A stretch of 32,000 nt of DNA from Nitrosospira multiformis ATCC 25196 (GCF_000196355.1 NC_007614.1:1110001-1142000); one strand, 5' to 3'; shown: positions 8,067 to 26,512, counted from the stretch's first letter. Translations and numbers: made by a program. The notes: generated by a model not told the origin, from the letters alone.

Positions 8067-9407
8067 CTAGAAAGCAGCTGGAAAATTATTCAAAACAATT
8101 TCTCCGCCCGAAATAACCAGATCCGGGTATTCCAGATTTTTCAGGTTATGGGTGGGATCCCCCTTGATGGCGATCACGTCGGCGGGCGCGCCGGGCAGAA
8201 GGGTGCCGAGAAGGGGCAAGCCGAGGTGTTCCCCCGCTTTCGACGTGGCCGCGCGCAGGACCTCCAGGGTTTCCATATTTCCCATCTGCATCATGTACAT
8301 AAGCTCTTGGGCGTCGATTCCCCTGGGAACATCCGGGTGTGCGATTTCAGCGCCGTACAGCAGTTCGCCACCCTGTTCCCGCCAGACCCGGGTATTGTGC
8401 GCAACACCGGGACATTTCGACAGGGTATCGAGCGTCGTAACTATTCTGACACCCTGTGACACGGCTTTTTTTAACAGAGGCTCGGGGATGATGTCGCAGG
8501 GAACATGAGCCCACTCATCGATTCCCGCGTTGATGGCAATCTCCGCGCCTTTTACTTCGGCGATATGGGCCGTTACCCTGCGTTTGTTCACATGGGCTTC
8601 GTCCACTATCGCCTTTACGACTCTTTCAGCGAGCAGGGGCCAGGCAGTACCGAGACCAGTATTGGGATGTGGGTGAGAGGAATGGGCGTCGTTTGCCGCT
8701 TCGTGGTTTGGCGGTTCGTGATTGGGCTGTGCATGATGAGCATGATTACCGGCGGCCGCATGGTTGTGGTGATGCACATGCGCATGGCCGCACGACCACG
8801 GCGCGCCCGGCTCGCCGCCGGGTTCCAGGGCAATCTTGATCACCACCGCGCCCGCATCGATCAGGTTTCGGACTGTTTCTCTTGCTTCTTTCTCCGTGGA
8901 TACCGGTGTTGCGATATTCTTTTCCCCTGTCAGCGGGATAGGATAACCGCCAGGTGCGGTGATGATGGGTCCCGAGGTAAGCATGCGCAGGGTGCCATTT
9001 CCGCCATAGGGCTTGTGTACCGGTCCGCCTACGTCCCGGATTGTGGTAATCCCATGCTTCAATACAGTATCGGCAGGAACATGCTGGAACGAAAGATGGG
9101 CATGCAGTTCGATAAAACCGGGCAGTATCGTCGCGTCCCCCAGATCGATGACTTTTGCATTATCGGGGGCGAATGAGCCGCGTGGGCCGATTTGCGTTAC
9201 CTTTCCGTTTACTACCTGTACCGATGTGTTTGTCCTCATCCTGTGGCCGTCGAAAACCCGTGCGGCATGCAGGAGAAGCGCGTCGTGCTTCCCCATCTGG
9301 GCAACAGCCAGAGGGGAGGCCAGCATGACCGACATCAACGATAAACCTGTCGTGATTCGGCTGGCGAGGCTGATGAGGCTGGTGATTTTCAGGCAGACGC
9401 TTTTCAT
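8067..9407 (-). CDS. Periplasmic metal-dependent amidohydrolase family protein with a histidine-rich insertion
   Basis: SD AGGAGA before the ATG and a signal peptide ending ASPLAVAQ. GFIELHAHL is the HxH metal motif, and later His residues occur at VTAHIAEV and EWAHVP. The overall layout resembles COG1228-type amidohydrolases. The 44-aa insert CGHAHVHHHNH...HSSHPHPN contains 14 His. Confidence 0.85.
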   Translation of the reverse strand: MKSVCLKITSLISLASRITTGLSLMSVMLASPLAVAQMGKHDALLLHAARVFDGHRMRTNTSVQVVNGKVTQIGPRGSFAPDNAKVIDLGDATILPGFIELHAHLSFQHVPADTVLKHGITTIRDVGGPVHKPYGGNGTLRMLTSGPIITAPGGYPIPLTGEKNIATPVSTEKEARETVRNLIDAGAVVIKIALEPGGEPGAPWSCGHAHVHHHNHAAAGNHAHHAQPNHEPPNHEAANDAHSSHPHPNTGLGTAWPLLAERVVKAIVDEAHVNKRRVTAHIAEVKGAEIAINAGIDEWAHVPCDIIPEPLLKKAVSQGVRIVTTLDTLSKCPGVAHNTRVWREQGGELLYGAEIAHPDVPRGIDAQELMYMMQMGNMETLEVLRAATSKAGEHLGLPLLGTLLPGAPADVIAIKGDPTHNLKNLEYPDLVISGGEIVLNNFPAAF

Positions 9408-9471
9408 GGCCTTTTCTCCTTTTTCCTATATCTTGATTGCGTTCCAGATGCTGCTCGATTCAGCAGTATTT

Positions 9472-10620: not shown

Positions 10621-10649
10621 GTGCGTAAGAGATCAAGTAAAAAGTTGCT

Positions 10650-12317
10650 TCAAAAAACCAGGCTGAAGTCGATGTAGACCATGTCCGCATCTTTCTTGCC
10701 CTGATAAAAATTCCTGACCACGCTGCCGCCGAATGCATGGCCGTAATAGAACCGCCATGACAAGTGCTTGTTGAGCGTGTGCGTGAAACTGATGTCCACC
10801 AATTGACCTACATCACTTTTGCCGCCGGAGGGGCGACCCGAGTAGCCAAATGCACCCGAGCGGGACGTCGGTCCGAGCCCTGAGTAGAACAGATCACTCG
10901 AATTGCTGAGGGACAGATGGTGCAGATCGATTGTCACTCTGGTTTTCGGAGTGGGCGAGACGATCATCTGAAGAAATGCATCCTGCATATTAATGAGGTT
11001 GTAGAAAGGGAGCTTGGCATACGCACGCCCGCTGGGAAGGGCGGTAAAGTAGGTTTTATGCGTGCCGTCATTGGCCTTGTCGTCGCCTGAACTTCTGAAA
11101 TAGAGCGCCCGCAGCCATGGCTGGAAGGGAAGAGCCGTCCATTGATATCCGGCCTCTGCCGCAATCGCCCATGCCTGGTGGCCCTGGTTGGTCCAGTCAC
11201 CGAACTGATAAGCCCCCCACAACAACGCATCGATGCTGCCCGACCCTAACGGATGGAGGGTGAGCAGGTGCGCGCCGATGGTATGGAGATTCAGGTTCTG
11301 GTTATCAAGCCTGGGCCGTTCTGCGGCAGGACGGTTGTCCACCGCCTGCGTGTTGCGTTTGTCCTCGTAATTGAGGTAGAAGAGGCGACCTTCTGTTCCT
11401 GGGAGCAGAACATCCTTCTTGCTGGTGAGTGCCGCGTAAAACAGATTGATGTCGCCGATTTCTTTTTGCCCCTGGACGGTGAACCCGCCCTGGGTGGGAC
11501 GTATCCCGGCAGCCGTTACATTGAAACCGGGCCGGTCATAAACAGCGGTAAAGCCGTCGAAGCTTCGACCTACATGGACGACGTTGGAGGCAAGGAGGCG
11601 TTGGGCGATACGTGCCCGTTTAAGGCCGTCGAACTTGCCGATGCCTGTTGTATATTCCATGCCATCCATGAACTCGAACCGGCCGATTTTAAGCAACGCT
11701 CCCGGCAGCCCCAATGAACTGAACTTGAAGTCGAGATAAACCTGTTTCAGAAAAACGTTGCTGGCATTCGTTGACTGGTTGGCAAGGAAATAGGCGCCGC
11801 CCAGTCCCAGCGGGCCGCCGGGAGATGCAACCGCATCGTCCGGAAGGCTGTATAAACCGATATATTGGGCTTGCGCATAGCCATCGATATAGGGCGTGGT
11901 GAGCAGGGCGCCCAATCTTGCCCGCGCTGCCCACAAGCCATAATCGTTGTTGTTATTGGTTGCCGGGTCTGGTCGAAAAAAATTCCAGGTCTCGTGGCTG
12001 CCGTACAGCTCGCCCATCAGCCGCAGATATTCGTTAATCTGACCTATGGGTTTGATGCCGTCCGCAGCAGCCCATGTACCCGTGGCTTGAAACATGAGGC
12101 AGATCAAGATGCAAAGGATTTCCCATCTTGATCGTCTTCGACGGTTATTCTTAGGGAATCGCTGAACAAATCCCTCGCAGGCGCGACGGTGGCTTTGCGG
12201 GATGAGATGCGCGAAAGGCGACGACGCGAATGGCTGATCCCCTTCGCTAGGAGTCTGACAGCGCAGATCGCCCGCAAAGCTCCGTCCCAGGGGGTTGCAG
12301 CAAAATCGCACGCTCAC
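10650..12317 (-). CDS. Outer-membrane beta-barrel porin-like protein; start codon unresolved
   Basis: The body has alternating amphipathic strands rich in Y/G, and the C-terminus ..MVYIDFSLVF has the terminal Phe typical of OM barrels. There is a good signal-like segment RRRRSRWEILCILICLMFQATGTWAA/ADG, but no ATG, GTG or TTG lies directly upstream of it. The only upstream in-frame ATG (12317) sits inside the palindromic repeat element at 12161-12422. The subfamily (alginate-export-like?) is not established. Confidence 0.6.
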   Translation of the reverse strand: MSVRFCCNPLGRSFAGDLRCQTPSEGDQPFASSPFAHLIPQSHRRACEGFVQRFPKNNRRRRSRWEILCILICLMFQATGTWAAADGIKPIGQINEYLRLMGELYGSHETWNFFRPDPATNNNNDYGLWAARARLGALLTTPYIDGYAQAQYIGLYSLPDDAVASPGGPLGLGGAYFLANQSTNASNVFLKQVYLDFKFSSLGLPGALLKIGRFEFMDGMEYTTGIGKFDGLKRARIAQRLLASNVVHVGRSFDGFTAVYDRPGFNVTAAGIRPTQGGFTVQGQKEIGDINLFYAALTSKKDVLLPGTEGRLFYLNYEDKRNTQAVDNRPAAERPRLDNQNLNLHTIGAHLLTLHPLGSGSIDALLWGAYQFGDWTNQGHQAWAIAAEAGYQWTALPFQPWLRALYFRSSGDDKANDGTHKTYFTALPSGRAYAKLPFYNLINMQDAFLQMIVSPTPKTRVTIDLHHLSLSNSSDLFYSGLGPTSRSGAFGYSGRPSGGKSDVGQLVDISFTHTLNKHLSWRFYYGHAFGGSVVRNFYQGKKDADMVYIDFSLVF

Positions 12318-12422
12318 TTCGTTGCGCTCCTTGGCATCGTAGTCCGAGCTACGAGCTTCGTCGCGCGCCTCGTGATCATCCCGATTTTGACAGCAACGCG
12401 CTCTGCGGAGGATTTGTTCAGC
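12161..12422. repeat. 262-bp nested-palindrome element with ~25-bp terminal inverted repeats (REP/BIME- or MITE-like)
   Basis: The left end gctgaacaaatccctcgcaggcgcg (12161-12185) matches the reverse complement of the right end cgcgctctgcggaggatttgttcagc (12397-12422). Internal arms include gacggtggctttgcgggatgagatgcgc (12184-12211) versus 12258-12285, with a perfect 10-bp gctttgcggg/cccgcaaagc. A second hairpin pairs ttgcagcaaaatcg (about 12296) with cgattttgacagcaa (about 12382). Confidence 0.6.
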
Positions 12423-12502
12423 GGTTCCTTAATTACAAACACTAAACTGTCTTCTTGCGCTGCTTGGATTACTCTTGCGCGAGATCATGGGAGTTATTGG
12501 AT

Positions 12503-13741
12503 TCATGGCTTCACAGGTTCTTGCACCTTTGCGGTAGTCGCGCGCTGAACCGCGCCAGTTGGCGCCGGTGTTTGCGCCTTGCGCCGTCGGGCAGAAGCCA
12601 GTCCCAGGGCCGTCAGGCACCCGCACAAGAGCACGCCGATCAACAAGCCCCAGGAAGACTGGGAGTTGCCGGAATAATTCGAAAACTCGCTATAAAGGGG
12701 CGGGCCGGATGCGAACCCGCTGAAGAAAGCGACTGAAACAAAACCGGATGCCGTTGCTATCGGGCCAAATGTGGCATCCCTGATCAACATGCTCATTGCG
12801 ATTGCATTGGTGCCGACGGCGGTGAGGCCCATTCCCACAGCTCCTGCCCAGAGGGGCCAATGACTGTCCGCATTGGCCCTCATCGTCACCGCGATTGCGC
12901 AAGCTGCAATGGCGATGAGCACAATCAGAAGCAGCGATTCGTCTTTCATTCTGGCACCGAGGGGTGTCAATGTTATCCGCGAGAGTATCCCCATCACGCC
13001 GAAGACGGCGATCAAGCTTCCCGCCACCGACAGCGCCATCCCTTGGCGGACGGCAAAGGTCGGCAGGAACGTAACGAAGGCGGAGAGTGCTATACCCACG
13101 CAAAACTGGATGGCCATCAAACGCAGCAGCAGTACATTTGGCAGGGGGACAGTGAAAGCTTTACGCGTTTCCGAGGGTTTCCGCGGAGCGATGAAGGGTG
13201 TCGTAATTCCGAACAGTATCGCTACCGGAACAACGATGCCGAATGCGGCATGCCACCCGTATTGCGTTGCGATGGCGGGAAGAATGAGACCTGCAAAAAG
13301 CGCCGCAAGCTGAACGCCGGATTGCTTGAATCCTACGACTGTCGCCTTTTTCTCCGGTGAAACATGCTGCGCGATCAGTAAATTGGTGACCGGGTTTGCC
13401 AGCGCCTGGGCGATTCCGCAAATGGCAGCCGCTGCAACCAGGGAGTAATAATCTTCAACCGTTGCAATCAGCGCAAAAGCAAGCGCTACGGCGAAGAAGA
13501 GCACTGCCAGCGCTCGGCGTGTCCCGATCCGGTCGACGAACGCGCCTGACCAGAGCGATAGAATGGCCGCGATGCCGAATGCACTCATCACGAGATAACC
13601 CGGCAGTCCGGGCTCGAAGCGCAGATCGCGCACGAGGAATGGTCCAAGCGTGCTGATGGCATACAAGACAAGCATCGGCAGGGCCATGGCAAATACCAGG
13701 ACAATCCTGAACCAGATGCCTGCAAATAGTGATTTAGCCAA
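12503..13741 (-). CDS. MFS transporter (candidate exporter/importer for the cluster product)
   Basis: 412 aa with about 12 hydrophobic segments and typical MFS loop motifs (e.g. FVDRIGTRR between TM2 and TM3). The TTG start overlaps the upstream ACAD stop by 8 nt. Confidence 0.85.
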   Translation of the reverse strand: MAKSLFAGIWFRIVLVFAMALPMLVLYAISTLGPFLVRDLRFEPGLPGYLVMSAFGIAAILSLWSGAFVDRIGTRRALAVLFFAVALAFALIATVEDYYSLVAAAAICGIAQALANPVTNLLIAQHVSPEKKATVVGFKQSGVQLAALFAGLILPAIATQYGWHAAFGIVVPVAILFGITTPFIAPRKPSETRKAFTVPLPNVLLLRLMAIQFCVGIALSAFVTFLPTFAVRQGMALSVAGSLIAVFGVMGILSRITLTPLGARMKDESLLLIVLIAIAACAIAVTMRANADSHWPLWAGAVGMGLTAVGTNAIAMSMLIRDATFGPIATASGFVSVAFFSGFASGPPLYSEFSNYSGNSQSSWGLLIGVLLCGCLTALGLASARRRKAQTPAPTGAVQRATTAKVQEPVKP

Positions 13742-14954
13742 AATGATAAACGTCCTCTTCCTTGAAGAAGTCGATGAGCCGGCGGCCTGTCGAACTGATA
13801 AGCGACTCGTCGGTGCCGTCGAGAATTCGCGACGTGCGCGCTATCCTGTAAATTCCGGAGAGGGGCGTGAGGTCGCTGATGCCTTCAGCACCATAAAGCT
13901 GCACCGCTGAATCGGAGGCAATGCAGAGTGCTTGTGACGCAGCCATTTTGGCGACATTGATCCGCACATCGCTGGGGCATTGAATATCGATTCCGCGTGC
14001 AGCAACGCGAATCAATTCGCGCGCGCTTGCAATAGCCTGATAAGTGTTGGCAATGTGCTGCCTTACGAGCTGCTTGTAAGGCAGCCGGGCTGAAAGGCCG
14101 CGGCGGGAATTGATGCGCATACCCATCAGGTCGAAACATCGTTGCGCCAGTCCCACCCAGTTCATCGCGCGAAGCAGACGGCCGAGACGGAGCCGTTGAC
14201 TCATCAGCTCTGTGCCATTGTCATTTTTGCCCAACCGGTTATATTCGGGGACCTGCACATCGGTGAAAGACATTTCACCCTGGCCCAGAAAACGCCCCAG
14301 TATGGGAATCTGGCGCTCGATACTGAATCCAGGGGAGTTCGTGGGAACAAGGATCATTGAAAGCGTCTGGCGGGTATGGATTTCTTCTTTGCCAGTGCGC
14401 GCCAGAACCGTGACAAAAGTGGCACGGTCGGCATTGCCGACAAACCATTTTCTGCCATTGATCGTCCAGTTTCCGTGCGACAGGTGGGCGGAAGTCGTTA
14501 TCAGCGTGGGAAACGAGCCGCCATGATCGGGCTCGGTCATGCCGTAACTGGGAGTGGCTTCCCCGGCAACCATGGGTTCCAGGAAATTTCTGTGAATTTC
14601 ATCGCTGCCGAACTTCAGGAGCATGTGCGCATCCAGGGCTGAATGGCTGCCAAAGATCGCGGACGAGAACTCTGAGCGTCCTTCCTGCTCGGCTACGATC
14701 AGGTAATCTTCAAGAGAAGCAATTTTTCCGCTGTGGGAGAGCGGATAAAACAGGCCCCAGAGGCCGGCACGCCGTGCTTTTTCGGTCAATTCCGATTGCA
14801 GTTGCGCTGCCGAATCCCCTCCCTCGGCCAGGCGCGGCTCGCAAGGGATGATTACCTTGTCGACGAACTTTCTTACCTCGCACGAAAGAGATCGGGCTGC
14901 TTCGGTATGGGAGGATGCTTGCTCCTGATATGCTTGCAGCATCAATGTGCCCAT
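13734..14954 (-). CDS. Acyl-CoA dehydrogenase family flavoprotein
   Basis: GMTEPDHGGS (the GxTEPxxGS motif), QLYGAEGIS, and the C-terminal RILDGTDE with the Glu at the catalytic-base position. The start overlaps the ligase stop by 13 nt. Confidence 0.85.
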   Translation of the reverse strand: MGTLMLQAYQEQASSHTEAARSLSCEVRKFVDKVIIPCEPRLAEGGDSAAQLQSELTEKARRAGLWGLFYPLSHSGKIASLEDYLIVAEQEGRSEFSSAIFGSHSALDAHMLLKFGSDEIHRNFLEPMVAGEATPSYGMTEPDHGGSFPTLITTSAHLSHGNWTINGRKWFVGNADRATFVTVLARTGKEEIHTRQTLSMILVPTNSPGFSIERQIPILGRFLGQGEMSFTDVQVPEYNRLGKNDNGTELMSQRLRLGRLLRAMNWVGLAQRCFDLMGMRINSRRGLSARLPYKQLVRQHIANTYQAIASARELIRVAARGIDIQCPSDVRINVAKMAASQALCIASDSAVQLYGAEGISDLTPLSGIYRIARTSRILDGTDESLISSTGRRLIDFFKEEDVYHFG

Positions 14955-16603
14955 TCGGGATGACTCCGGTGGGCGGGATGTTCCGTGAATTCGATTTCGG
15001 TAGTCAGCCGCTTCTTATCGATTTTTCCCGCAGGGCTGAGGGGCAGCTGGCGGTAATAGCGCAGGTATTCGGGAAGCTTGCTTGTCTCCAGGCCCTTTTC
15101 ATGGAGAAAACGGGTGAACTGGGAAAGTGACGGACGTTCCGCTCCCTCTCTCGTGACGAGACAGAGGCAAACCCTGTGTCCCAGGTCCGCGTCGGGCACC
15201 GGAACACAGGCTGCGCTGACAACCGCCGGATGGGAAACAGCAATGTTTTCAATTTGAGCGGGACTGATATTGACGCCGCCCCGAATGATGATGTCTTTCT
15301 TGCGGCCGGATAGCACCAGATGGCCCTCTTCATCAATAAGGCCGAGGTCACCGGTATACACCCATCCCTCCTGGTCACGGTACAGGGCGTCGAGATCCGG
15401 GTCATTGACGTACTGCATGGGACTTATCGGACCCCTGGCCGCTATTTCTCCTATGCAACCTTGCGGTACTTCCTGCTTCTGGTCATCGATTATACGAATG
15501 GAACAGATTTCCGGATTGGGCCTTCCCGCCGTCCTGATAATGGTTTCCAGGTCATCATCCAGGGTCGTATGACAATTGACGCCATCGGCAGAACCATACA
15601 AGCTGATGAATCCACATCGGAACGCCTTCGTACATCGGCGAATGGAGGTTTCATCGATTTTCGCGCCGCCGCTGATGATGGCAACCAGGCTGGACGTATC
15701 CGCCTGCGTCAACGCAGGGTCTGCGGCAATGCGTTGAAACATCGTGGGAACGCCCAATATATGCGTGGGCTTCAGTTCCGCGAGGGCTTGAATAGCAGCT
15801 GCAACGTCAAATTGCCGCAGGACAATGAGGGAGCCGCCCAGCCAGGATAAAACCCCGAATGTCGCCGTGGAGCCGAATGCGGTGCCGAGCGGCATCAGGT
15901 AAAGACCCCTGAAAGTCTTTCCTTCGGGATGAATTCGTTGCAGAAATCGCCCTCGTCCGCCCGCCAGCGCGTTGTGAGAATAAGCCACCCATTTGGGCTC
16001 GGATTCCGTGCCGGATGAGATCAGGAAACGGGCAGGTGAATCGGGGCAGACTGTCGGCAGGTCCGGTTCAATGGAGGCGGGCCGGAACAATTCATCCAGT
16101 GCGTGCCAACCGTCTCCGGCTGCGCCATCGACCACGAGGATGCGCAGTGAAAGCAAAGTGGGGCGTATGGATTCGATCAATTCGCAAAGGTCGGTTTTTC
16201 CATATTCGCGCTCGACAATAATTGCACGGGCGTCACAGCGTCTGAGCAGGGACTGGATATCGAGGCGGCCGCGGCCTGGCGGAAAAGGTGCCACGATGGC
16301 TCCAAGCGCGGCCGCCGCCAGGTCGATCGCGCAGCTCCGCCAGTCGTTATGAAGCTGGTATGAGATTACATCGCCCGCAACAATGCCCAATTCCTGGAAA
16401 CTGGTTGCCAGGCGATGGACCTTGTCCAGCAACGCTGCGTAACTGGTGGTATGGTCGAGCGATATTACTGCCGGATTATCCGGCTGTTGCTCCACTCGCT
16501 CGCAAAACAACTCGTACAGGGATTTATTCGGATAGATTCCCTGCCGGGCCCATTGCGCGCGGACCTCGGCGGGGACCATATCCAGGATGCCGGAATGGTT
16601 CAT
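14942..16603 (-). CDS. Adenylate-forming acyl-CoA synthetase / AMP-dependent ligase (ANL superfamily)
   Basis: ISSGTESEPK (the A3 P-loop-like motif), YGSADG, YTGDLGLIDEEGHLVLSGRKKDIIIRGGVNISPAQIE (A7/A8) and PAGKIDKKRL (A10 Lys). There is an ATGA start/stop overlap with the CoA-transferase gene. Confidence 0.9.
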   Translation of the reverse strand: MNHSGILDMVPAEVRAQWARQGIYPNKSLYELFCERVEQQPDNPAVISLDHTTSYAALLDKVHRLATSFQELGIVAGDVISYQLHNDWRSCAIDLAAAALGAIVAPFPPGRGRLDIQSLLRRCDARAIIVEREYGKTDLCELIESIRPTLLSLRILVVDGAAGDGWHALDELFRPASIEPDLPTVCPDSPARFLISSGTESEPKWVAYSHNALAGGRGRFLQRIHPEGKTFRGLYLMPLGTAFGSTATFGVLSWLGGSLIVLRQFDVAAAIQALAELKPTHILGVPTMFQRIAADPALTQADTSSLVAIISGGAKIDETSIRRCTKAFRCGFISLYGSADGVNCHTTLDDDLETIIRTAGRPNPEICSIRIIDDQKQEVPQGCIGEIAARGPISPMQYVNDPDLDALYRDQEGWVYTGDLGLIDEEGHLVLSGRKKDIIIRGGVNISPAQIENIAVSHPAVVSAACVPVPDADLGHRVCLCLVTREGAERPSLSQFTRFLHEKGLETSKLPEYLRYYRQLPLSPAGKIDKKRLTTEIEFTEHPAHRSHPEWAH

Positions 16604-18543
16604 TTAAATCTCCAGGGAGAATTGACTTGGGTATAAGAACCGGAGGTCAGCCCTGGTTGCAGATGCGCCAGGGTTTGAAGGTCGACAAGATCTTCGATGA
16701 CGACGGCGGAGGGAATGCCTGCGTGCTGGAAGAGTTCAACCCATTGGTCAGCCGTTTTTGAGAGGAACACTTCGCTCAAGCATTGCTGGAAGCCATTGTT
16801 TTCAATGCCAGGAGTAAGGTCGAGGACTTCCGCGAGCCGTAATACCGTATCCACATCGGGGCATTCGATTGCAATCCTGCCCTGCCTTGTGGCGTAAACG
16901 TCATTGATGATACTTGTCGAAGGTTTTGAACCGGAAGCCGGCAAACTGTATATATCCCGGAAATCCTCGGCACACAAAAGTGTTGCTGCGCTCATGAGCG
17001 AGGAAGTGACCTTCGCCCCCACATTGTTCATGCACCGGTTAAGCAGTGCAATCGTGACACCTTGAGCCGCTACCACGCCTCCGAGCACATCCAGGACGGT
17101 GAACAAGGAGCCGCCACGGCTGCTGCCACCTCCTCCGACCTTTCCTGCCACTCCCGAATAGGCTTGAGCCATGAAATCCGTTCCGGGCATTGAATTTGAA
17201 GAGACGTGCTCGGCACAATCGGTGGCCCATCCGCCTGCATACGCATAAATCAGGGAGGGGTTGATTGCCGCCAGATCGCCATGATCGAGATTGAGCAGTA
17301 CCGCTTTGCCCGGCGCCCAATTGTGCAGAAAAATATCGGCGTGCCGTGCCAGCTCCCTGATTTCTGTTTTTCCAGCTGCGGATTTGATATCGATTTCGCG
17401 CACCGTTTTGAGATGGTTGAGCGCCTGGAAACGCGCGGAGCAACCTGCAGCCATGGGCGGCATTCCTCGCAGCGGATCGCCGCCTGGCGGCTCTATCCTG
17501 ATAACGGTTGCCCCGAGGAGTGCGAGCAAATGCCCGGCGAGAGGACCTTGTATGCGCCGGCATGATTCGATCACTGTGAATCCGCTTAACGGCAAATCAT
17601 CCTCCGGCAATGCGCCGCCCGCGGGGAGCAGGTATTCTCCATTCGGTTTTGGTTCGGATGAGAACGACGAAAACGCCCACGGGCCTTGCTGCCAGATTTG
17701 TCTGGCATCGTCGTCCTGTGCCCTGTCATCGATCGAGCGGACGGGGCAGATAGCCATGCCGGTTCTCGCACACACTTGCGAGATGCGGTGATAGGTCAGC
17801 CTCGAGATAGCGCGGGACAGCTCATCCGGCAATGGCGAGGCCGCTTTTGCGTATCGCAGCAGAAAAACTCTCCATCCTTTTCCCGCCGCTGCTGAACTTA
17901 CACCCAGTGTTGACCAGAATCTTTGCCAGGGGCCGGCGTCAAGTGTTTCGAGTTCAAAAATGACTCCGTCCAGGGAGACAAAGGGAGGGCAAGCGGGGGA
18001 TGAGCCAGGAAGGGGACGAGTGGCTTCAGCGGCCTCGGTGGTTTCAGGAGACTCCGAAGCAGTCGCCCCGGCGATATACTGACTCATGCTCAACAAGCCT
18101 GCGGCTGCCATCGAGACAGTACTGCTGGAAACAGGCAGTCCCCGCAGCCGGGCAATGGAAGCGGCGATGCTGCCCTGAAGCGCCAGTGCCGCAGTCAAGG
18201 TCGAAACGTAGTTCAGCCCCAGAGGTTTCGGCTGCCGATGGCTTCGCCCGTGCACCGACATCAATCCGCATGCTGCCTGCATGATGTTTTCGCTTACGGC
18301 GGCCTGCCGGAAAGGATCTTCCCATCGGGTGATCTCACATGTGACAGGGGCGGTGTGGGGTGTTTCGAATTCGAAGCACAATGTCTCGTCGCCTGCACAA
18401 TTTCCATCTGCTACGGTTTGCATCCCCAATGCTTCGGACTGATAAAGAAACGAGGAGGCTATGGGGGCAAAATCAGGGGTTATGCTTTTCGGACCCTTCA
18501 TCACACAACCCGTCAATGTTCGATTCATGCTCATGTTTCTCAC
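16600..18543 (-). CDS. Type III (CaiB/BaiF) CoA-transferase, full copy preceded by a fused N-terminal partial copy
   Basis: The C-terminal half has the full family pattern: LSGFTVIESCRRIQGPLAGHLLALLGATVIRIEPPGGDPLR, GTDFMAQAYSGVAG (catalytic Asp context), YATRQGRIAIE and SPWRF. The N-terminal ~300 aa repeats the middle and C-terminal blocks (SENIMQAACGLMSVHG..P.PLG...STLTAALALQGSIAA, FVSLDGVIFELE..GPWQRFWSTLG) but lacks the Rossmann-like N-terminal block. The GTG start is uncertain (18543, 18534 or 18528). Confidence 0.85.
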   Translation of the reverse strand: MRNMSMNRTLTGCVMKGPKSITPDFAPIASSFLYQSEALGMQTVADGNCAGDETLCFEFETPHTAPVTCEITRWEDPFRQAAVSENIMQAACGLMSVHGRSHRQPKPLGLNYVSTLTAALALQGSIAASIARLRGLPVSSSTVSMAAAGLLSMSQYIAGATASESPETTEAAEATRPLPGSSPACPPFVSLDGVIFELETLDAGPWQRFWSTLGVSSAAAGKGWRVFLLRYAKAASPLPDELSRAISRLTYHRISQVCARTGMAICPVRSIDDRAQDDDARQIWQQGPWAFSSFSSEPKPNGEYLLPAGGALPEDDLPLSGFTVIESCRRIQGPLAGHLLALLGATVIRIEPPGGDPLRGMPPMAAGCSARFQALNHLKTVREIDIKSAAGKTEIRELARHADIFLHNWAPGKAVLLNLDHGDLAAINPSLIYAYAGGWATDCAEHVSSNSMPGTDFMAQAYSGVAGKVGGGGSSRGGSLFTVLDVLGGVVAAQGVTIALLNRCMNNVGAKVTSSLMSAATLLCAEDFRDIYSLPASGSKPSTSIINDVYATRQGRIAIECPDVDTVLRLAEVLDLTPGIENNGFQQCLSEVFLSKTADQWVELFQHAGIPSAVVIEDLVDLQTLAHLQPGLTSGSYTQVNSPWRFK

Positions 18544-18564
18544 GGGACAGGAATAATTTCGGAC

Positions 18565-18837
18565 TCAACCCCCTGCAACGGCAGGCAGGATGGTCAGCAA
18601 GTCGCCATCAGTGAGGCTGGTCGAGAGGCCCTCGCTAAAGCGAATATCGTTGTCGTTCACATAGATATTGACGAAGCGGTGTGCTTCGCCCCCGGTGATC
18701 AGTTTTTCCTTGACGCCAGGGTACTGTTGTTCCATCCGTTCAATGGCATCGAGCACATTGGAGCCATCCACTTCGATACGCTTCTGGTTGTCGGTAAGGG
18801 GTCTGAGTATGGTCGGGATACTTATGGTTATCGGCAT
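18565..18837 (-). CDS. CysO-type MoaD/ThiS-family sulfur carrier protein ending in Gly-Gly
   Basis: MPITISIPTILRP...HRFVNIYVNDNDIRFSEGL...LLTILPAVAGG-stop. This is the beta-grasp carrier pattern, and as I recall it, very close to mycobacterial CysO (SIPTILRP, HRFVNIYVND, TILPAVAGG). I prefer ATG 18837 with SD GGAGA over the track start 18867. Confidence 0.9.
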   Translation of the reverse strand: MPITISIPTILRPLTDNQKRIEVDGSNVLDAIERMEQQYPGVKEKLITGGEAHRFVNIYVNDNDIRFSEGLSTSLTDGDLLTILPAVAGG

Positions 18838-19042
18838 ATTTATTTCTCCATATTTGGTTTTAAACACGAAAAGTATTAATAAGGATTTAAATTCGCATTA
18901 ACGCCCTTATTCAACATAAAAGCGTATCGCGTTCATCTAATTGGCAGGTTCAAGCGTTTTCACGCGTGCCTCAATCCCGCTACCACCTGCCAATATTCCT
19001 GATCAACCTGTTTGCGAAAAATCGAACCCTCCAGAAGGCGCC

Positions 19043-19495
19043 CTAGGCTACCATTGCCTCCATCGATAACTCCCATTCCGCCTTATATGAATTTATCATC
19101 CTGATTCTCTCTTCGGTGACCATTCCATCGAGAATGCGGAAGCTGCGGATTTCTTCTCCGTATGCGGGATCGGTTGGAACAATGACATAATGGGATTGGG
19201 GCTGGGACGCGTATTGCACGTCGGTACGGCTTGGATAGGCTGGAGTGTGGGTATGGGAGTGATAAATCACGATGGGTTCTTCGCCACGTGCCTCCATCTC
19301 TCTCCAGACCTGTAGCTGCTCTTGCGGATCGAACTTGAAAAATGTTTCGGACTGGGCTGCATTGCGCATCGGGATGAGGCGCAGGGGAAGATTCGATTTT
19401 TCCGGACCGGCAATGACCCCGCAGATTTCAAAAGGATGATCTTTATGTGCCTGAGCAAGCATTGCTTCAACGAGCTTGGCGTGTATGGTCAGCAT
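19043..19495 (-). CDS. JAMM/MPN+ metalloprotease (Mec+/QbsD-like)
   Basis: It carries the upstream Glu (FEICGVIAG) and a complete JAMM motif HSHTHTPAYPSRTD (HxHx7Sx2D). I prefer ATG 19495 with SD GGAGGA over the track start 19522. Confidence 0.9.
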   Translation of the reverse strand: MLTIHAKLVEAMLAQAHKDHPFEICGVIAGPEKSNLPLRLIPMRNAAQSETFFKFDPQEQLQVWREMEARGEEPIVIYHSHTHTPAYPSRTDVQYASQPQSHYVIVPTDPAYGEEIRSFRILDGMVTEERIRMINSYKAEWELSMEAMVA

Positions 19496-19675
19496 GATTC
19501 TTATCCTCCATGATGTTGACATTAATCAGCATATTCCCGGTCGAGAAAAATATAATTCCGTCATTGTGTGCCTCATCCGGAATCCAGAGGTTTTCGCATA
19601 TGGATTGCCAGGTTAGCCAGGCTTCGCCCGACGTCCGGGTATGTCGGTTGGAGCTCTACCCTAGTGACGACTCGC

Positions 19676-20848
19676 TCAATAACTTGGCAATGTCTGATCC
19701 ACATCCCTGATCCACGCCAGGATTCCGCCATCCAGGCTTTTGACATTCGTAAACCCCCGCTTGCGCATCTCCATGAGAATATCCCGGGACCGCACGCCCA
19801 TTTTGCAGTGAAGCACGATAAGCTCATCCTTGTTCAATCGGGCTAAAACTTCCTCGGACATCATCCTGTCCTTGGGAATATGATTTGCCCCTTCGATATG
19901 CACGATGTTCCATTCCTGGATTCCGCGAACATCGATAAGCTGCATGGCTACGCTGCAATCCCGCATCTCTTTCAATTCCAGGGCGCTGATCGTGGGTACG
20001 TTCGGTTTGCCGCCCGTCGTTGACTGCGGGAGGCCGCAAAATGCCTGGTAATCGATCAGCCGGGTGATCGGTGTCCTGACCGGGGCTCGCCGCAGCGGGA
20101 TGAATCTGAAGGTCATATCCAGGGCATCGTAGACAGCAAGCCTGCCGAGCAGGGTATTGCCCAGACCGGTAATCAATTTGATGGCCTCGGTAGCCATGAT
20201 CGCGCCGATGGATGCGCACAGTATGCCCAGCACGCCGCCTTCCGCACACGACGGGGCCATTTCGGGCGGCGGGGGTTCGGGATAAAGGTCGCGGTAGTTC
20301 AGGCCGCGTCCTCCTGGCGCATCTTCCCAGAAGACCGAGGCCTGCCCTTCGAAGCGGAAAATGGACCCCCAGACATAGGGCTTTCCAGCCAGCACGCAGG
20401 CATCGTTGACGAGATAGCGGGTGGAGAAGTTATCCGTTCCGTCTATTACCAGATCGTAGTCCGATATGATGTCAATAGCATTTGTTGTTTCGAGTCGTTC
20501 ATCGTGAATCCGAACCTGGATATAGGGATTCAGGGCCTTGACCGAGTCCTGCGCACTCCGGCATTTGGGTCTGCCGATATCCTGCTGCCGATGAATGACC
20601 TGCCGCTGTAGATTGGATTCATCAACAATATCGAAATCGATAATGCCCAAGGTTCCCACGCCGGCTGCGGCCAGATAGAGGAGCGTCGGCGATCCCAGCC
20701 CTCCGGCGCCGATTACCAGGACCTTGCTGTTCTTGAGACGCTGCTGCCCTTCCAGACCGACATCCGGAATCAGCAGATGGCGGCTGTAGCGCGAAATTTC
20801 TTCTTTACTCAATTCTTCCGAGGGATGTACCAGCGGTGATAGCTGCAT
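19676..20848 (-). CDS. moeZ: MoeZ/MoeBR-type E1-like adenylyltransferase fused to a rhodanese sulfurtransferase domain
   Basis: RYSRHLLIPDVGLEGQQRL..VLVIGAGGLGSP is the ThiF/MoeB nucleotide loop. CAEGGVLG is present, and the C-terminal rhodanese domain has the active-site loop HCKMGVRS. SD GGAGG lies before the ATG. Confidence 0.9.
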   Translation of the reverse strand: MQLSPLVHPSEELSKEEISRYSRHLLIPDVGLEGQQRLKNSKVLVIGAGGLGSPTLLYLAAAGVGTLGIIDFDIVDESNLQRQVIHRQQDIGRPKCRSAQDSVKALNPYIQVRIHDERLETTNAIDIISDYDLVIDGTDNFSTRYLVNDACVLAGKPYVWGSIFRFEGQASVFWEDAPGGRGLNYRDLYPEPPPPEMAPSCAEGGVLGILCASIGAIMATEAIKLITGLGNTLLGRLAVYDALDMTFRFIPLRRAPVRTPITRLIDYQAFCGLPQSTTGGKPNVPTISALELKEMRDCSVAMQLIDVRGIQEWNIVHIEGANHIPKDRMMSEEVLARLNKDELIVLHCKMGVRSRDILMEMRKRGFTNVKSLDGGILAWIRDVDQTLPSY

Positions 20849-20886
20849 TCGAAACCTCCATGTTCAAGTCAAAGGATCATCATTTC

Positions 20887-22827
20887 TTAGAAGCTTGCGG
20901 CTATGCCGATTTGTCCCCACCGACCCGGCATGGGATACCCCGGACGGTAGGCATAGTTGGCATCCAGAAGGTTTTCCATGGCCACGAAAATTTCTCCTTT
21001 CGTGCCCAGGAAAGGCAATGGGTGGGAGACACGCGCATTCATGATTACAAAGGAGTCGACTCGCTCGGTATTCCCTGCCCCGGCTGAGCGGGAGCGGCTG
21101 AGCGCCAGTACGCTGGATTGGTACTGGGTATCGATCGTCACGCGAATCATTCCGAATTGGCCATTAAGACCGGCTGTAACCGCTCTTGCCGGGGTATAAG
21201 GCAGGTTGTCGATGGTAGGATCGAGCAAGGTCAGCCCGCCGAATATCGTCCAATGACGTCCGATATTCTGCGTGATCGCAATCTCGGCACCCCGGATCGA
21301 ATAAGTGCCGAGATTGAGGAATTGAGGCGGTGGCGGAACATTCGGCGGAAAGCCGAAGATGAACCGGTTCTTTACCTGGTCGATAAAGAGGCTGACATCG
21401 ATTTGCGTCGCGTCGATAGGTGTCAGTTTCAAACCGATCTCCGCATGGTTGAGTTCTTCCGCGGACAGCTGTTTCCATGTCTGCCCCAACGGCGGAATCA
21501 GGAAGGAGAGAACAGGTGCTTCCAGACCTGGATAGTTGATGCCGCGTGAAACATTGCCGAAGAGGGTCAGCTTCTCGGAAACCAGGGAGAGGCCCGCGTG
21601 GGGCGAGGTTCTCGTGCGGAACATGCTGTGATCGTAGACACGTATCCCGACCGACGGCACCAGCGACCAGTTTTCATTGAGATCGATCTTCTGGCTTAAT
21701 GCCACATAGGGCGAGGTAACACGGAAAGTCGGTGTATCGAAACTGTCTCGTGGAGCTGGCGGCAGCCGGTTGAATCGTACGTCGCCCGAAACCCAGTCGC
21801 TGTCGAGACCGGCAACAATAGCACTCCCCCTCCATAGGGAGAATTCTTCTTTCCAGCGCATGCCAGTCATCTGGAAGTTATTGAACTGGTCTCCTTCTAA
21901 TCCGGATTGATGCAACCAGTTGCCTTCCCCTCTATTGTGGTAAACACGCAGGCCACCACGCCAGTTGCCATGACGATGCGATACAAAAACAGAGACGATT
22001 CCTGCCTGGGTATTGTATTGTGGCGCCACGGCGGGCACCGGGAGCCGGTTGTCACCCGGGTCACCTGCCTGGTTGTTGACATAAAGAAAGCTCGTGCCAA
22101 CTGACCAATTAGCGTTCAGGCGCACCCCGATGCGTCCCATTACATTGTTCAGCTCGCCGTTCGCATTAGGCCGATGTCCATTCGATTGGGCGTGGCCTTG
22201 CGCCAGCATGAAATCCACGTTTCCATAACTGCCCACCAGATCCGCCTGCTCTATGAAGGTGCTGAAGTAGCCTCCGGATATCCTGCCGCTGGCATGCAGG
22301 CCCTCTTCAGTGGCGCGCTTGGTTTCCAAATTGATCGAGGCAAAGTTGTTTCCGTTGATTTGTGGCTGCGGGCTTTTATATACTGTGATTGCCTGCATGC
22401 CGTTGACCGGCAGAAGATCGAGCAAGGGATGGTTCCAGACCCCCATGTAAAATGGAACGCCATCGATGTAGGTTTTGATTTCGCTGCCGGGCCGGCTGAC
22501 GCCCATCCCGCGGATATAAACCCCGCCGCCCTGATCCCCACCAAAGGCGCCCACAGGGTTGTAGCGCGATATCTGGACGCCAGGCGTGCGCCGCAGCGCG
22601 GTAGCCAGATCGAATGCATTCTGGTCGTGCAACTGGCTTTCGGTGACGACCGCCGATGTGCTGGAAAAACCGTCGATACGAATGCGATCTATGATCGGAT
22701 TGGCGGTTACCACAATCGGAGTAAGTTCAGTTTCATGCGCCATGGCAAAACCTGGGCAGATTATCGTCAAGACCGCAGATAGTGCGGTTGCTGTGTTTTT
22801 TCTTCTTATCATTTTTCTTGTTTTCAT
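20887..22827 (-). CDS. TonB-dependent outer-membrane receptor (siderophore/metallophore type)
   Basis: The signal peptide ends FAMA/HE. The TonB box-like LTPIVVTA follows directly, so there is no FecA-type signalling extension. The plug has FDLATALRRTPGV, and the C-terminus is ..WGQIGIAASF. I prefer ATG 22827 (MKTRKMIRRK..) over the track start 22878. Confidence 0.85.
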   Translation of the reverse strand: MKTRKMIRRKNTATALSAVLTIICPGFAMAHETELTPIVVTANPIIDRIRIDGFSSTSAVVTESQLHDQNAFDLATALRRTPGVQISRYNPVGAFGGDQGGGVYIRGMGVSRPGSEIKTYIDGVPFYMGVWNHPLLDLLPVNGMQAITVYKSPQPQINGNNFASINLETKRATEEGLHASGRISGGYFSTFIEQADLVGSYGNVDFMLAQGHAQSNGHRPNANGELNNVMGRIGVRLNANWSVGTSFLYVNNQAGDPGDNRLPVPAVAPQYNTQAGIVSVFVSHRHGNWRGGLRVYHNRGEGNWLHQSGLEGDQFNNFQMTGMRWKEEFSLWRGSAIVAGLDSDWVSGDVRFNRLPPAPRDSFDTPTFRVTSPYVALSQKIDLNENWSLVPSVGIRVYDHSMFRTRTSPHAGLSLVSEKLTLFGNVSRGINYPGLEAPVLSFLIPPLGQTWKQLSAEELNHAEIGLKLTPIDATQIDVSLFIDQVKNRFIFGFPPNVPPPPQFLNLGTYSIRGAEIAITQNIGRHWTIFGGLTLLDPTIDNLPYTPARAVTAGLNGQFGMIRVTIDTQYQSSVLALSRSRSAGAGNTERVDSFVIMNARVSHPLPFLGTKGEIFVAMENLLDANYAYRPGYPMPGRWGQIGIAASF

Positions 22828-23060
22828 CGAATTCCTGTGAATTGCTGCAAGCAGGCCCAAGCAACAGGGCCAAAGCAACCATCAATGCTGTAAACGAAGT
22901 CATTTGCTCGAAGGCGGAATGCATATCGACGTGAAGCCCGAAGCCTCGTGCCGGGAAAAAACCGGAAGGAGCTTGTCACCTGCGGCCAGGAGAATGTCGG
23001 CAAACCCTGTATAGCTGCTGAGGTGGAATGTAAGGCAAATCGTGGGAATTAGGAATGTGG

Positions 23061-23104
23061 CATATTGCCGCATGTGACAAATTGTCGCATGTCATATTGC
23101 GGCA
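23061..23104. promoter_or_regulatory. Tandem 17-bp repeat with overlapping dyad symmetry; candidate operator in the receptor/PBP divergent intergenic region
   Basis: attgccgcatgtgacaa (23064-23080) is followed immediately by attgtcgcatgtcatat (23081-23097), with 13/17 identical. The outer inverted repeat is tgccgca (23066-72) / tgcggca (23098-104). The central near-palindrome is tgtgacaa-a-ttgtcgca (23073-23089). Confidence 0.35.
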
Positions 23105-23407
23105 CTCACGCCAGGTTTGATGCGGAAGGTTTCATCGTCTCGACAGACTGTTTCCGGTACATATCCGGCGTTGCGGAATCCGCCTTGCTGCTGACTGTCT
23201 TAAACATTGCAGTTCGATACCCGCTTATTTATCATGTCCATAATGCCGGCGGTGTTTGCGTCCGAAACGAAATAAGAAGCGAAAAGATTTAACAATCTTT
23301 TTGATCAGAGATTCGACACGAATTCAAAAAAACGAACAAGTCGAGGAAAATGCTGCATTTCGTGGTTTGGTTGATATCCATAAAACAGTAATGTTGTATT
23401 TTTACCC

Positions 23408-26400: not shown

Positions 26401-26512
26401 CAAACCCCTTATTGACAAGCCTCCATCCTGGCCGGAATCCACCCTGGCGGAGGATGCGATCAGGAAAGCTTTACCGGAAGAAAAGGAAAAGCTGCAGCCC
26501 ACTTCCAGCTAA
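23408..26512 (+). CDS. Divergent class-A PBP-like protein (GT51 transglycosylase + penicillin-binding transpeptidase motifs)
   Basis: N-terminal TM anchor. GT51-like blocks: SLLFIENRELLD, PGGSTLATQIEK and RKQIMVDYLNTVPL. Transpeptidase-like motifs: STAK (Ser499), SVN (Ser605) and KTG (Lys927). The start is TTG at 23408 or 23423, with no upstream ATG. Confidence 0.8.
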   Translation: MLIPTLRRALRFFTPRVLILLFAALSVAVFLVYREIETSWYQAWRLSKLAGDLKWEIRSGRDEDFTQLALSQTGPYDIRLGYSSLPRLLQNLEKHGFEVQAQAHASRQMKDLVRRGVFVPYREKSQAGLEITGSNGQSLYRVSFPKRVYDKFESVPSVITSSLLFIENRELLDETRPKKNPAIDWARLGRAILDKGIQVFNSDHDVPGGSTLATQIEKYRHSPNGLTLTSGDKFQQIASASVRAYLQGDNTLAVRKQIMVDYLNTVPLAGALGFGETNGIGDALWAWYGLDFEETNRILNWQYRNETEFAKAAGRYKHVLSLMIAQRRPSYYLLAGRQELDELTDAYLRVLTQVKVIPPRLRDAALRQPLRFRDAFKPEEIKDFSAQKAVNAARVRLASQLGLQGLYDLDRLDLSVQSTLDIELQKRTTEMLRQLRDPINAVAAGLYGHRLLGKEDPSKIIYSFTLSELTPDGAKFRILADNFDQPLDINKGTKLDLGSTAKLRTLVTYLEIVEALHRKYAAWELKALRAEEVDPSDALSRWAIDHLLHSGDKSLRSMLNAAMERKYSANPYERFFTGGGQHVFHNFKPEDNYRIMSVREATTNSVNLVYIRLMRDIVRYYMFQVGGSSAKILRDASNSDRGEYLRRFADKEGRVFINRFYLKYKDKSTDPREVSDIFFSSFRHTPRRLAAAYRYIYPASSLVEFVAFMTPHLPRFKQLDTYRLEDLYEAYAPGKYSLADQGHIVTVHPLELWLARYLILHPAADYKEVIDASAGERIAVYHWLFNTIHKNSQDVRIRGLLEVEAFLEIHRSWKRLGYPFDSLVPSLATAIGSSADHPAALAELMGVILNDGVRVPTLLIERLRFAADTPFETIVEKKPLQGERVFSPELAATVRSVLTKVVAVGTASRLAHAMVEEDGSEILIGGKTGTGDHRHITFSSSGVIKESRAVNRSATFVFFIGDRFFGTMTAFVPGVDAANYTFTSALSTQVMKKLVPVLKPLIDKPPSWPESTLAEDAIRKALPEEKEKLQPTSS

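Follow-up and report, generated by a model that had tools for sequence, protein, structure and literature searches.

A candidate thiocarboxylate metallophore operon, possibly for copper, in Nitrosospira multiformis and other ammonia-oxidizing bacteria

In this work, we analyzed a stretch of 32,000 nucleotides from the chromosome of Nitrosospira multiformis ATCC 25196 (hereafter the window), in which an earlier sequence-only reading had proposed a locus for the synthesis and transport of a thiocarboxylate metal chelator. The locus is an operon of ~15 kb on the minus strand, extending from 22878 to 8067, in which a sulfur-carrier system and a thioacid cassette are found together with putative transport genes. 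As judged from the encoded proteins, it is likely to specify a thiocarboxylate metallophore system with dedicated transport. The fuller statement, that the operon builds, exports and recovers a thiocarboxylate metallophore of the same kind as PDTC (pyridine-2,6-dithiocarboxylic acid) and thioquinolobactin, most likely for copper, seems to us reasonably probable. The idea as such is not new, since two earlier papers had pointed to the locus (Iyer, Burroughs and Aravind 2006, PMC1779556; Dong et al. 2018, PMC6006322). What the present analysis adds is how far the operon extends, the Asp that occupies the catalytic-base position in its acyl-CoA dehydrogenase (ACAD), an enzyme with a GH88 fold, fusions of the sulfur carrier, an operator conserved in ammonia-oxidizing bacteria (AOB) and the copper context of the orthologous operons.

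In the case of the sulfur-carrier trio, the MoeZ-type protein reaches 626 bits on the NCBIfam model NF005902, just short of the 647-bit cutoff, the JAMM protein shows the HSHTHTPAYPSRTD motif and the carrier ends in AVAGG, that is, with an uncapped Gly-Gly. The CoA-transferase, whose 647-residue open reading frame (ORF) is 100% identical to a protein of N. multiformis ATCC 25196, consists of two tandem type III domains in one protein, the architecture that characterizes the thioacid cassette: residues 319-615 match Pfam CoA_transf_3 (E=5e-67), and the N-terminal 304 residues alone also match it (E=6e-12, 45.8 bits, cutoff 23.3). In the C-terminal domain, D456, within PGTDFMAQAYSG, is aligned with the Asp of the PGxD motif in solved type III CoA-transferases; by analogy with D169 of Frc, we take it to be the catalytic Asp, with D430 as the counterpart in PtmU4. 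A motif of the PGTDFMAQAYSG type was seen in 23 of 28 orthologous hits; the five remaining ones were truncated or did not fit the pattern used for the search. In the degenerate N-terminal domain, SENIMQAACG contains a Cys and, at the catalytic-Asp position, a Glu. The Cys of this QAxCG motif recurs in PtmU4, PdtI and YtkF in a published alignment and could be a site of sulfur handling. The adenylate-forming ligase reaches no NCBIfam equivalog cutoff; its gene overlaps that of the CoA-transferase by four nucleotides (ATGA, 16600-16603), which places a synthetase within two genes of the transferase.

This combination is the one described by Dong et al. (2018, PMC6006322), in which PtmA3 makes an acyl-CoA and PtmU4, together with a carrier-protein thiocarboxylate, makes the thioacid. 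These authors define PtmU4 homologues as two-domain enzymes, and row 148 of their Supplementary Data 2 places N. multiformis ATCC 25196 (SEF49176.1/SEF49150.1) in the thioacid group of their sequence similarity network, a group of 175 members. The fused CoA-transferase, which the sequence-only reading took as a feature that sets the locus apart, is thus the hallmark of the family, and both domains of the window protein match CoA_transf_3. Similarly, Iyer et al. (2006, PMC1779556) list "Nmul" in a "siderophore biosynthesis" neighbourhood (Table 1, row 4a) composed of homologues of PdtH, PdtF, PdtG, PdtI and PdtJ, and found also in Nitrosomonas europaea, Ralstonia, Hahella and Pseudomonas producers.

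Tblastn searches with the window proteins were made against 28 related loci from Nitrosospira, Nitrosovibrio, Nitrosomonas, Methylobacter, a Methylococcales metagenome-assembled genome (MAG), Methylosinus, Ralstonia, Rugamonas, Burkholderia alba, Hahella, two Pseudomonas and Micromonospora (loci are given below with L numbers and single homologous proteins with P numbers). The order MoeZ, JAMM, carrier, CoA-transferase, ligase, ACAD and major facilitator superfamily (MFS) transporter is repeated in most of about two dozen loci of alpha-, beta- and gammaproteobacteria, being rearranged in Methylosinus and Rugamonas, and such a recurrence argues that the arrangement did not arise by chance. The CoA-transferase and the carrier trio occur together in every sufficiently long locus except the two from Micromonospora. 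Moreover, the carrier is fused in frame to the CoA-transferase in N. multiformis Nl18 (L005, 9698-11908), a fusion that may be a sequencing artefact, and in a metagenomic protein of 737 residues with PF02597 and PF02515 (P0010). Together with the two-domain CoA-transferase and the overlapping ligase gene, this co-occurrence and fusion support the inference, central to the sequence-only reading, that the carrier system and the thioacid cassette jointly produce a thiocarboxylate chelator with its own transport.

The C-terminus of the carrier varies among the loci. It ends with an uncapped Gly-Gly in the window and in most relatives, with GGC in four Nitrosospira loci, and with longer caps in Hahella, Methylosinus, B. 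alba and L018. The presence of capped or fused carriers in relatives explains why the JAMM gene is retained in the window, where the carrier needs no trimming.

The operon is widespread in Nitrosospira, Nitrosovibrio and Nitrosomonas, and occurs in several methanotrophs. In N. europaea, expression of the orthologues NE2347-NE2350 (MFS, ACAD, ligase and CoA-transferase) shifts in a coordinated manner (PMC11024918). For the CoA-transferase of the window, and likewise for that of Pseudomonas mendocina, the 120 best homologues are all at least 47% identical and include no Pdt or Qbs protein of P. stutzeri, P. putida or P. fluorescens, which indicates a clade separate from the characterized pdt and qbs loci. 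Three of the homologues with ~50% identity (P0265, P0266 and P0271) are labelled Salmonella enterica, an unexpected host; these could come from a mobile element or a mislabelled assembly.

The AOB loci contain no scaffold genes. The cassettes of Pseudomonas and Micromonospora, on the other hand, have two Pig-type genes as neighbours, one for a PigE equivalog (1429 bits, cutoff 850), the other for an enzyme resembling PigD (663 bits, short of the cutoff of 950). PigE is the thioester-reductase/aminotransferase of 2-methyl-3-n-amylpyrrole (MAP) synthesis in the prodigiosin pathway. Cassettes with these neighbours were found at L020 17716-21869, L023 460-7761 and L015/L016 ~15550-19870, L023 having in addition an O-methyltransferase, a second MFS transporter and a receptor. 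Such neighbours suggest a pyrroline- or pyrrole-based thioacid product in the Pseudomonas and Micromonospora lineages.

The sequence-only reading had delimited the locus to 12503-22878 and described eight co-directional genes, from the TonB-dependent receptor to the MFS transporter. All eight ORFs are present on the minus strand at the coordinates it gave, and their Pfam and NCBIfam domain content agrees with the gene order that it described; the extent, however, was too short, since the conserved unit continues to 8067. The genes of the GH88-fold enzyme, the porin and the His-rich amidohydrolase were overlooked, and the operator also lies outside that range. The reported overlaps (16600-16603, 14942-14954 and 13734-13741) and the 21-nt gap between carrier and CoA-transferase (18544-18564) were reproduced from the maximal ORFs. 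Likely starts lie downstream of the maximal ORF for the receptor (ATG at 22827), the JAMM protein (19495) and the carrier (18837), and at M4 or M6 for the CoA-transferase, whose homologues have 643-646 residues; for this reason the gap between carrier and CoA-transferase is better given as 21-36 nt. The AlgE-like barrel also probably starts inside its ORF. The gap between MoeZ and JAMM genes is ~150-180 nt and that between JAMM and carrier genes ~205 nt, and no terminator-like site was found on the minus strand in the intergenic gaps of the operon.

Among the characterized systems that come close to the operon is the pdt locus for PDTC. It has the same five-gene core in the same order (PdtF-G-H-I-J, corresponding to MoeZ, JAB, carrier, CoA-transferase and ligase), an uncapped Gly-Gly carrier, and a TonB receptor and an MFS transporter in the locus. 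The window CoA-transferase is ~43% identical to PdtI, 37% to YtkF, 34% to QbsK and 31% to PtmU4, rough values that were taken from the noisy optical character recognition (OCR) text of Supplementary Figure 27 of Dong et al. and cover N-terminal halves only. There are also differences. The window operon includes an ACAD of the ACAD10/11 type, the GH88-fold enzyme, the AlgE-like porin and the His-rich amidohydrolase, which may set it apart from the pdt locus. The pdt locus is under iron regulation with the AraC-type activator PdtC, whereas the window has neither an AraC-type regulator nor a Fur box, and operons orthologous to that of the window are headed by CruR-type leaders, which would mean control by copper rather than by iron. 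No dipicolinate synthase gene was found in the window.

The qbs locus of P. fluorescens, for thioquinolobactin, shares the E1-rhodanese/JAMM/carrier trio and the CoA-transferase/ligase pair (QbsK/L), and leads to an N,S-chelating heteroaromatic thioacid. Its kynurenine-pathway scaffold genes were not found in the domain scans of the window, and its carrier QbsE is capped after the Gly-Gly and needs QbsD, whereas the window carrier ends with the Gly-Gly. In the case of PtmA3/PtmU4 of Streptomyces platensis, the sulfur comes from a carrier thiocarboxylate made by a MoeZ-type enzyme, as we propose for the window; the ptm cluster, however, borrows carrier, E1 and JAMM proteins from elsewhere in the genome, whereas the window operon contains them, and what the window operon makes is probably a chelator, not a building block for an antibiotic. 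The trio of E1-rhodanese, JAMM and Gly-Gly carrier is also that of CysO/Mec+/MoeZ in Mycobacterium tuberculosis. In the window it is tied to the thioacid cassette, to which its carrier is fused in some relatives, and CysM/O-phosphoserine sulfhydrylase or any other pyridoxal phosphate-dependent sulfhydrylase is missing. The absence of the usual acceptor enzymes noted by the sequence-only reading holds for all plausible ORFs of the window, none of which has a CysM, MoaE or ThiG/ThiH domain.

Two enzymes of the operon may modify the precursor before sulfur is transferred. The best PDB match of the ACAD is ACAD11 (8v3u, E=3e-46). At the catalytic-base position it has an Asp, in RILDGTDE, instead of the Glu of the YEGT motif; this stretch aligns with RLADGPDE of 8v3u, and the mutant entry 8v3v has an Asn at the same Asp. 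The Asp is kept in all orthologues, whereas an unrelated ACAD in L019 has the usual YEGTSE. Because the window protein has no kinase domain, the phosphate-elimination chemistry of ACAD10/11 is not implied, and we infer that the ACAD would oxidize, or eliminate on, a CoA-bound precursor.

The second enzyme, of ~380 residues, has no Pfam or NCBIfam match. Its AlphaFold model (pLDDT 90) resembles the unsaturated glucuronyl hydrolase (UGL) 2fv0 at a Foldseek TM score of 0.82 and 18% identity, and the equivalents of residues D149, H193 and R221 of the Bacillus UGL are invariant, whereas D88, which with D149 makes up the catalytic Asp pair of that enzyme, aligns with a Ser. There is no signal peptide. 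A GH88 fold with part of the catalytic residues and no signal peptide is what would be expected of a cytoplasmic enzyme with acid/base chemistry on a substrate other than a polysaccharide, and on the basis of the model the protein is probably not a glycosidase and is probably a tailoring enzyme of the hydratase/dehydratase type. Its gene follows that of the MFS transporter in related loci, often with the AlgE-like barrel in front of it, and is syntenic in AOB, Pseudomonas, Ralstonia, Hahella, Rugamonas, B. alba, methanotrophs and Micromonospora.

As for transport, the receptor matches only the Plug domain in Pfam. Its best PDB sequence matches, YncD and PqqU, are weak, and the same search gave no link to OprC, CrtA or MbnT. 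The MFS gene adjoins the ACAD gene in all loci. The best NCBIfam matches of the transporter, all far below cutoff, are D-galactonate, PgtP and aromatic-acid symporters; such matches would place it near organic-anion symporter families. The AlgE-like barrel is kept in most AOB and in both loci of gammaproteobacterial methanotrophs. The amidohydrolase has a signal peptide and a His-rich loop with 14 His in 50 residues; 10-16 His are found in the loop of all AOB orthologues, and the gene is part of the operon in AOB and in Methylosinus.

The sequence-only reading had not specified the metal, on which the evidence comes mainly from orthologous operons. The MoeZ gene of Ralstonia solanacearum, Rugamonas and B. 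alba is preceded, at a distance of 166-193 nt, by a DUF2946 ORF, and these ORFs show the hallmarks of CruR: a CXXC, exactly 45 residues, R[AG]PP, three residues and the stop. In Bordetella, the nascent CruR peptide senses copper and leads to Rho-dependent termination, so that the downstream genes are on only when copper is scarce (PMC9426467). In addition, the operons of Ralstonia, Hahella, Rugamonas and B. alba encode a periplasmic protein of ~155 residues with a His-rich tail, between the GH88-fold gene and the receptor, that matches the model NF033672, "copper uptake system-associated protein" (126-132 bits, cutoff 50). The receptors that end the NF033672-bearing operons of Ralstonia, Rugamonas and Hahella are 68, 64 and 60% identical, respectively, to that of the window. 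The orthologous operons of Burkholderiales thus have CruR, NF033672 and a TonB receptor, whereas the window has neither of the first two. Taken together, these observations in the orthologous operons probably point to copper rather than iron. The His-rich periplasmic proteins, the lack of Fur-box-like sites in the window promoters, the negative siderophore assay of N. europaea and the occurrence of the operon in many betaproteobacterial AOB and several methanotrophs agree with this reading. For the AOB themselves, we regard copper as the physiological metal with confidence that is evenly balanced.

A second DUF2946/CruR-type ORF heads a small neighbouring operon (L021 5257-7360; L026 4833-6975), which encodes a protein of ~350 residues without a family and an AhpC/TSA-like protein with a thioredoxin fold, and which adjoins the thioacid operon in Ralstonia, whereas in Rugamonas the two operons are divergent. 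A CruR candidate in Methylosinus (L025 605-1033), with a CXXC, 42 residues and RGPP, had no Pfam support; we set it aside as a hint only.

Several points weigh against a copper-binding thiocarboxylate as the product in AOB. The AOB loci contain no CruR and no NF033672 protein, and their link to copper therefore rests on orthology of operon and receptor. The Methylosinus operon is headed by an extracytoplasmic function (ECF) sigma factor, an arrangement common in iron systems, and the best NCBIfam match of the window receptor is a generic siderophore-receptor model (84 bits, cutoff 223.5). PDTC and thioquinolobactin, the characterized relatives, are described as siderophores (PMC6006322, PMC1779556). 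In the literature searched there were no copper or iron expression data for the AOB operon, no product was named for members of the clade, and no link was drawn between a thioacid cassette and copper. Finally, the taxonomic distribution is biased by a query that itself comes from an AOB, and fold and context are what the functions proposed for the ACAD, GH88-fold enzyme, amidohydrolase, porin and MFS transporter are based on.

The closest competing explanation is that the operon is an orthologue of pdt that makes PDTC from dipicolinate as an iron siderophore, with ferric uptake through a PdtK-like receptor and a PdtE-like MFS transporter. The shared order of pdtFGHIJ, the presence of receptor and MFS transporter, and the filing of the neighbourhood under siderophore biosynthesis by Iyer et al. 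(2006, PMC1779556) are all in agreement with it. PdtI also appears to be the closest characterized homologue (the ~43% of the OCR-derived N-terminal halves), and the carrier is uncapped like PdtH, the legend of Supplementary Figure 9 of Dong et al. naming only PtmS2, PtmS3 and QbsE as capped. Nevertheless, we consider this explanation unlikely: the window promoters have no Fur box, N. europaea carries the operon and is reported to be negative in the chrome azurol S (CAS) assay for siderophores under iron limitation (PMC3050691), the clade is a separate one, with no Pdt or Qbs protein of P. stutzeri, P. putida or P. fluorescens among the 120 best homologues, and the orthologous operons bear regulatory and uptake parts specific for copper. 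Moreover, PDTC also binds copper, so that even PDTC as the product would not by itself imply a role in iron uptake.

That the thioacid is a secreted defensive, antimicrobial or metal-detoxifying ligand, with receptor and MFS transporter serving export, self-protection or signalling, would find precedent in thioacid antibiotics such as thioplatensimycin, and the PigD-/PigE-like pyrrole-forming enzymes and the O-methyltransferase beside the cassette of Pseudomonas and Micromonospora suggest elaborate secondary metabolites. CruR leaders, however, shut genes off when copper is present, which fits acquisition and not detoxification, import is the function served by parts such as a TonB-dependent receptor and a "copper uptake system-associated protein", and the operon is kept across slow-growing chemolithotrophs with small genomes; such a role is quite improbable. 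It is hardly credible that the CoA genes are an ordinary catabolic module for carnitine, bile acids or fatty acids that happens to lie beside a sulfur trio of the CysO/Mec+/MoeZ type, a case for which the sequence-only reading expected the two gene sets never to co-occur. Homologues do bear names such as "L-carnitine dehydratase/bile acid-inducible protein F", "CaiB-like" and "acyl-CoA dehydrogenase", and NE2347-2350 were taken as cell-envelope or fatty-acid genes in an iScience paper (PMC11024918). The two sets are nevertheless together in most related loci and joined in the L005 and P0010 fusions, the transferase has the two-domain architecture of the thioacid group and not the single-domain CaiB/Frc form, all NCBIfam catabolic equivalogs stay far below their cutoffs, and CysM is absent from the ORFs of the window.

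Regulation in AOB appears to differ from that of the CruR-headed relatives. Upstream of the receptor gene, we found tandem units of a 17-nt palindrome with the consensus TGCGRCAAWWTGYCRCA, two clear ones at 23089-23073 and 23072-23056 and a degenerate one at ~23104-23090. Next come TTCCTA (23055-23050) and, after a spacer of 17 nt, TACATT (23032-23027). An array of two to three units stands in front of the receptor gene in all Nitrosospira loci of sufficient extent, and in front of the MoeZ gene in L011, L013 and L017, Nitrosomonas loci where no receptor gene lies upstream. The half-sites are CRP-like, but with a 7-nt spacer, and with a tentatively placed start site the units would be centred near -44, -61 and -78, a geometry that suggests an activator. 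The statement of the sequence-only reading that no regulator is present remains valid for regulator proteins in the window, and needs to be amended by the conserved operator in front of the operon; regulator genes were also absent from the window flanks and from the flanks of L008, L011 and L013. A search for shared palindromes in front of the operons of methanotrophs, Pseudomonas, Hahella and Methylosinus gave none, which indicates that the operator is specific to the AOB lineage.

Other modes of control found no match. In the intergenic regions of the locus, the best promoter match to a Fur box had 8/19 mismatches, and control by iron through Fur was dropped as the default because the window promoters have no site of this type. 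A scan of 4000-24000 against Rfam (E<=0.1) gave no riboswitch or leader RNA, and a CruR-like (DUF2946) leader is absent from the window and from every AOB locus examined. Two further copies of the operator may mark other members of the regulon. One, at L013 20778-20794 in a Nitrosomonas MAG, has 0 mismatches and lies right after the amidohydrolase gene, with no recognizable gene adjoining. The other, at L008 4894-4910 in Nitrosovibrio tenuis, has 1 mismatch and lies ~100 nt upstream of the gene of a PEP-CTERM protein.

Based on these data, the thiocarboxylate metallophore pathway may be pictured as follows. By homology to characterized enzymes, MoeZ would adenylate the Gly-Gly carrier and convert it into a protein thiocarboxylate, the ligase would turn a carboxylic acid into its CoA thioester, and the two-domain CoA-transferase, using Asp456, would exchange the CoA for the sulfur of the carrier to give the thioacid. 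Before this transfer, the ACAD may desaturate the CoA-bound precursor and the GH88-fold enzyme may dehydrate it. The precursor itself would be drawn from primary metabolism, the most economical guess being a saturated N-heterocyclic acid (di- or tetrahydrodipicolinate, pipecolate or proline are candidate types) that is made aromatic and so becomes an N,S chelator. The JAMM protein would uncap or release the carrier where it is capped or fused. The MFS transporter may carry the ligand or its complex across the inner membrane, the metal complex would return through the TonB-dependent receptor, the AlgE-like barrel or both, and the His-rich periplasmic amidohydrolase might help to free the metal or take it over. 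The whole would act as a chalkophore system that serves the copper enzymes of ammonia oxidizers and methanotrophs. The features of the operon are collected in Table 1.

Table 1. Features of the candidate metallophore operon in the window of N. multiformis ATCC 25196 (positions counted from the first nucleotide of the window)
Feature	Position	Strand	Basis
Promoter region with tandem 17-nt palindromic operator units	23027..23106	-	Conserved in AOB
TonB-dependent outer-membrane receptor, divergent family	20887..22878	-	Plug domain (Pfam)
MoeZ-type E1 adenylyltransferase-rhodanese fusion	19676..20848	-	ThiF + Rhodanese
JAMM/JAB metalloprotease	19043..19522	-	Prok-JAB, E=1e-31
ThiS/MoaD-like sulfur carrier, 90 aa	18565..18837 (maximal ORF from 18867)	-	Uncapped Gly-Gly end
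Type III CoA-transferase with two domains	16600..18543	-	CoA_transf_3
Adenylate-forming acyl-CoA ligase (putative PtmA3/PdtJ role)	14942..16603	-	AMP-binding + AMP-binding_C
Acyl-CoA dehydrogenase, ACAD10/11 type, three-domain	13734..14954	-	PDB match ACAD11
MFS transporter with 12 transmembrane segments	12503..13741	-	MFS_1
AlgE-like outer-membrane beta-barrel (Alginate_exp)	10650..12317	-	Pfam E=9e-27
Predicted cytoplasmic GH88-fold (alpha/alpha)6 enzyme, ~380 aa	9472..10620	-	Predicted structure
Periplasmic His-rich amidohydrolase	8067..9407	-	Amidohydro_1 + signal peptide

Directly downstream of the amidohydrolase gene, an uncalled ORF of 101 residues (7593-7898, minus strand) encodes a small lipoprotein-type monohaem cytochrome c, with a signal peptide ending in LVGC, a CTKCH haem motif and a weak cytochrome c6/c551 match; it is kept only in the N. 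multiformis lineage (L001, L002 and L012). It is followed by the gene of an 804-residue protein of the penicillin-amidase family (4944-7358, minus strand), which matches the model of the acylase PvdQ weakly (46 bits, cutoff 950). Siderophore precursors and acyl-homoserine lactones are among the substrates of acylases from this family. We rejected both genes as parts of the operon, which they trail only in the N. multiformis lineage, and the penicillin amidase is probably unrelated to it, because it follows the operon in close relatives only.

Farther along, the stretch 1000-4900 includes a region of low GC content (0.40-0.45 in 1001-3000), an ORF of 439 residues without a family match (1398-2717) and a macro-domain ORF of 192 residues (4319-4897) with similarity to the DarG antitoxin in its N-terminal part (68 bits, cutoff 250). 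The whole stretch may be the remnant of a toxin-antitoxin or defence island. On the other side, a protein of 1034 residues (23408-26512, plus strand) is transcribed divergently from the operon promoter; it shows weak transglycosylase/transpeptidase matches (PBP1A/PbpC-like), far below cutoffs, and occupies the same position in L001, L002 and L012. A secreted protein with a beta/gamma-crystallin domain (27470-27988; Crystall_3, E=1e-27) and a binding-protein-dependent ATP-binding cassette (ABC) uptake system that comprises a single SBP_bac_8 protein and two permeases (29170-31998) have no evident link to the operon.

If the product were PDTC acting as an iron siderophore, the operon would be an ordinary new member of a known family. 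If the proposed pathway is correct, it would enlarge the small class of natural thioacids (PDTC, thioquinolobactin and thioplatensimycin), give the widespread orphan cassette a function, and bring two further enzymes, a dehydrogenase of the ACAD10/11 type and one with the GH88 fold, into thioacid biosynthesis. Betaproteobacterial ammonia oxidizers are textbook "non-siderophore producers", and we know of no established route by which they acquire the copper of ammonia monooxygenase. Both in soils and in the treatment of wastewater, how much copper is available sets a limit to nitrification. Since the operon is conserved in AOB, and its relatives elsewhere follow a leader that senses copper and have a copper uptake protein as neighbour, it provides a concrete and testable candidate for a chalkophore pathway in nitrifiers.

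In its most specific form, our proposal is that betaproteobacterial AOB and some methanotrophs make a small enzyme-built thiocarboxylate chalkophore from a heterocyclic acid of primary metabolism, through ligation to CoA, aromatization by the ACAD and transfer of sulfur, and recover it by means of the receptor or porin and the His-rich hydrolase, the AOB controlling the system through a regulator that would bind the tandem 17-nt operator. We offer this specific version tentatively, as a possibility that is somewhat doubtful in its entirety. The job proposed is that of methanobactin systems, namely to provide copper to bacteria that depend on copper enzymes; methanobactin, however, is a ribosomal peptide, whereas the ligand of the window would be a small thioacid made by enzymes. 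No match to the Mbn families was found among the ORFs scanned against Pfam and NCBIfam, a scan that included no dedicated search for mbnA, mbnB or mbnC. If true, the chalkophore would be a non-ribosomal counterpart of methanobactin, feeding copper to the ammonia and methane monooxygenases.

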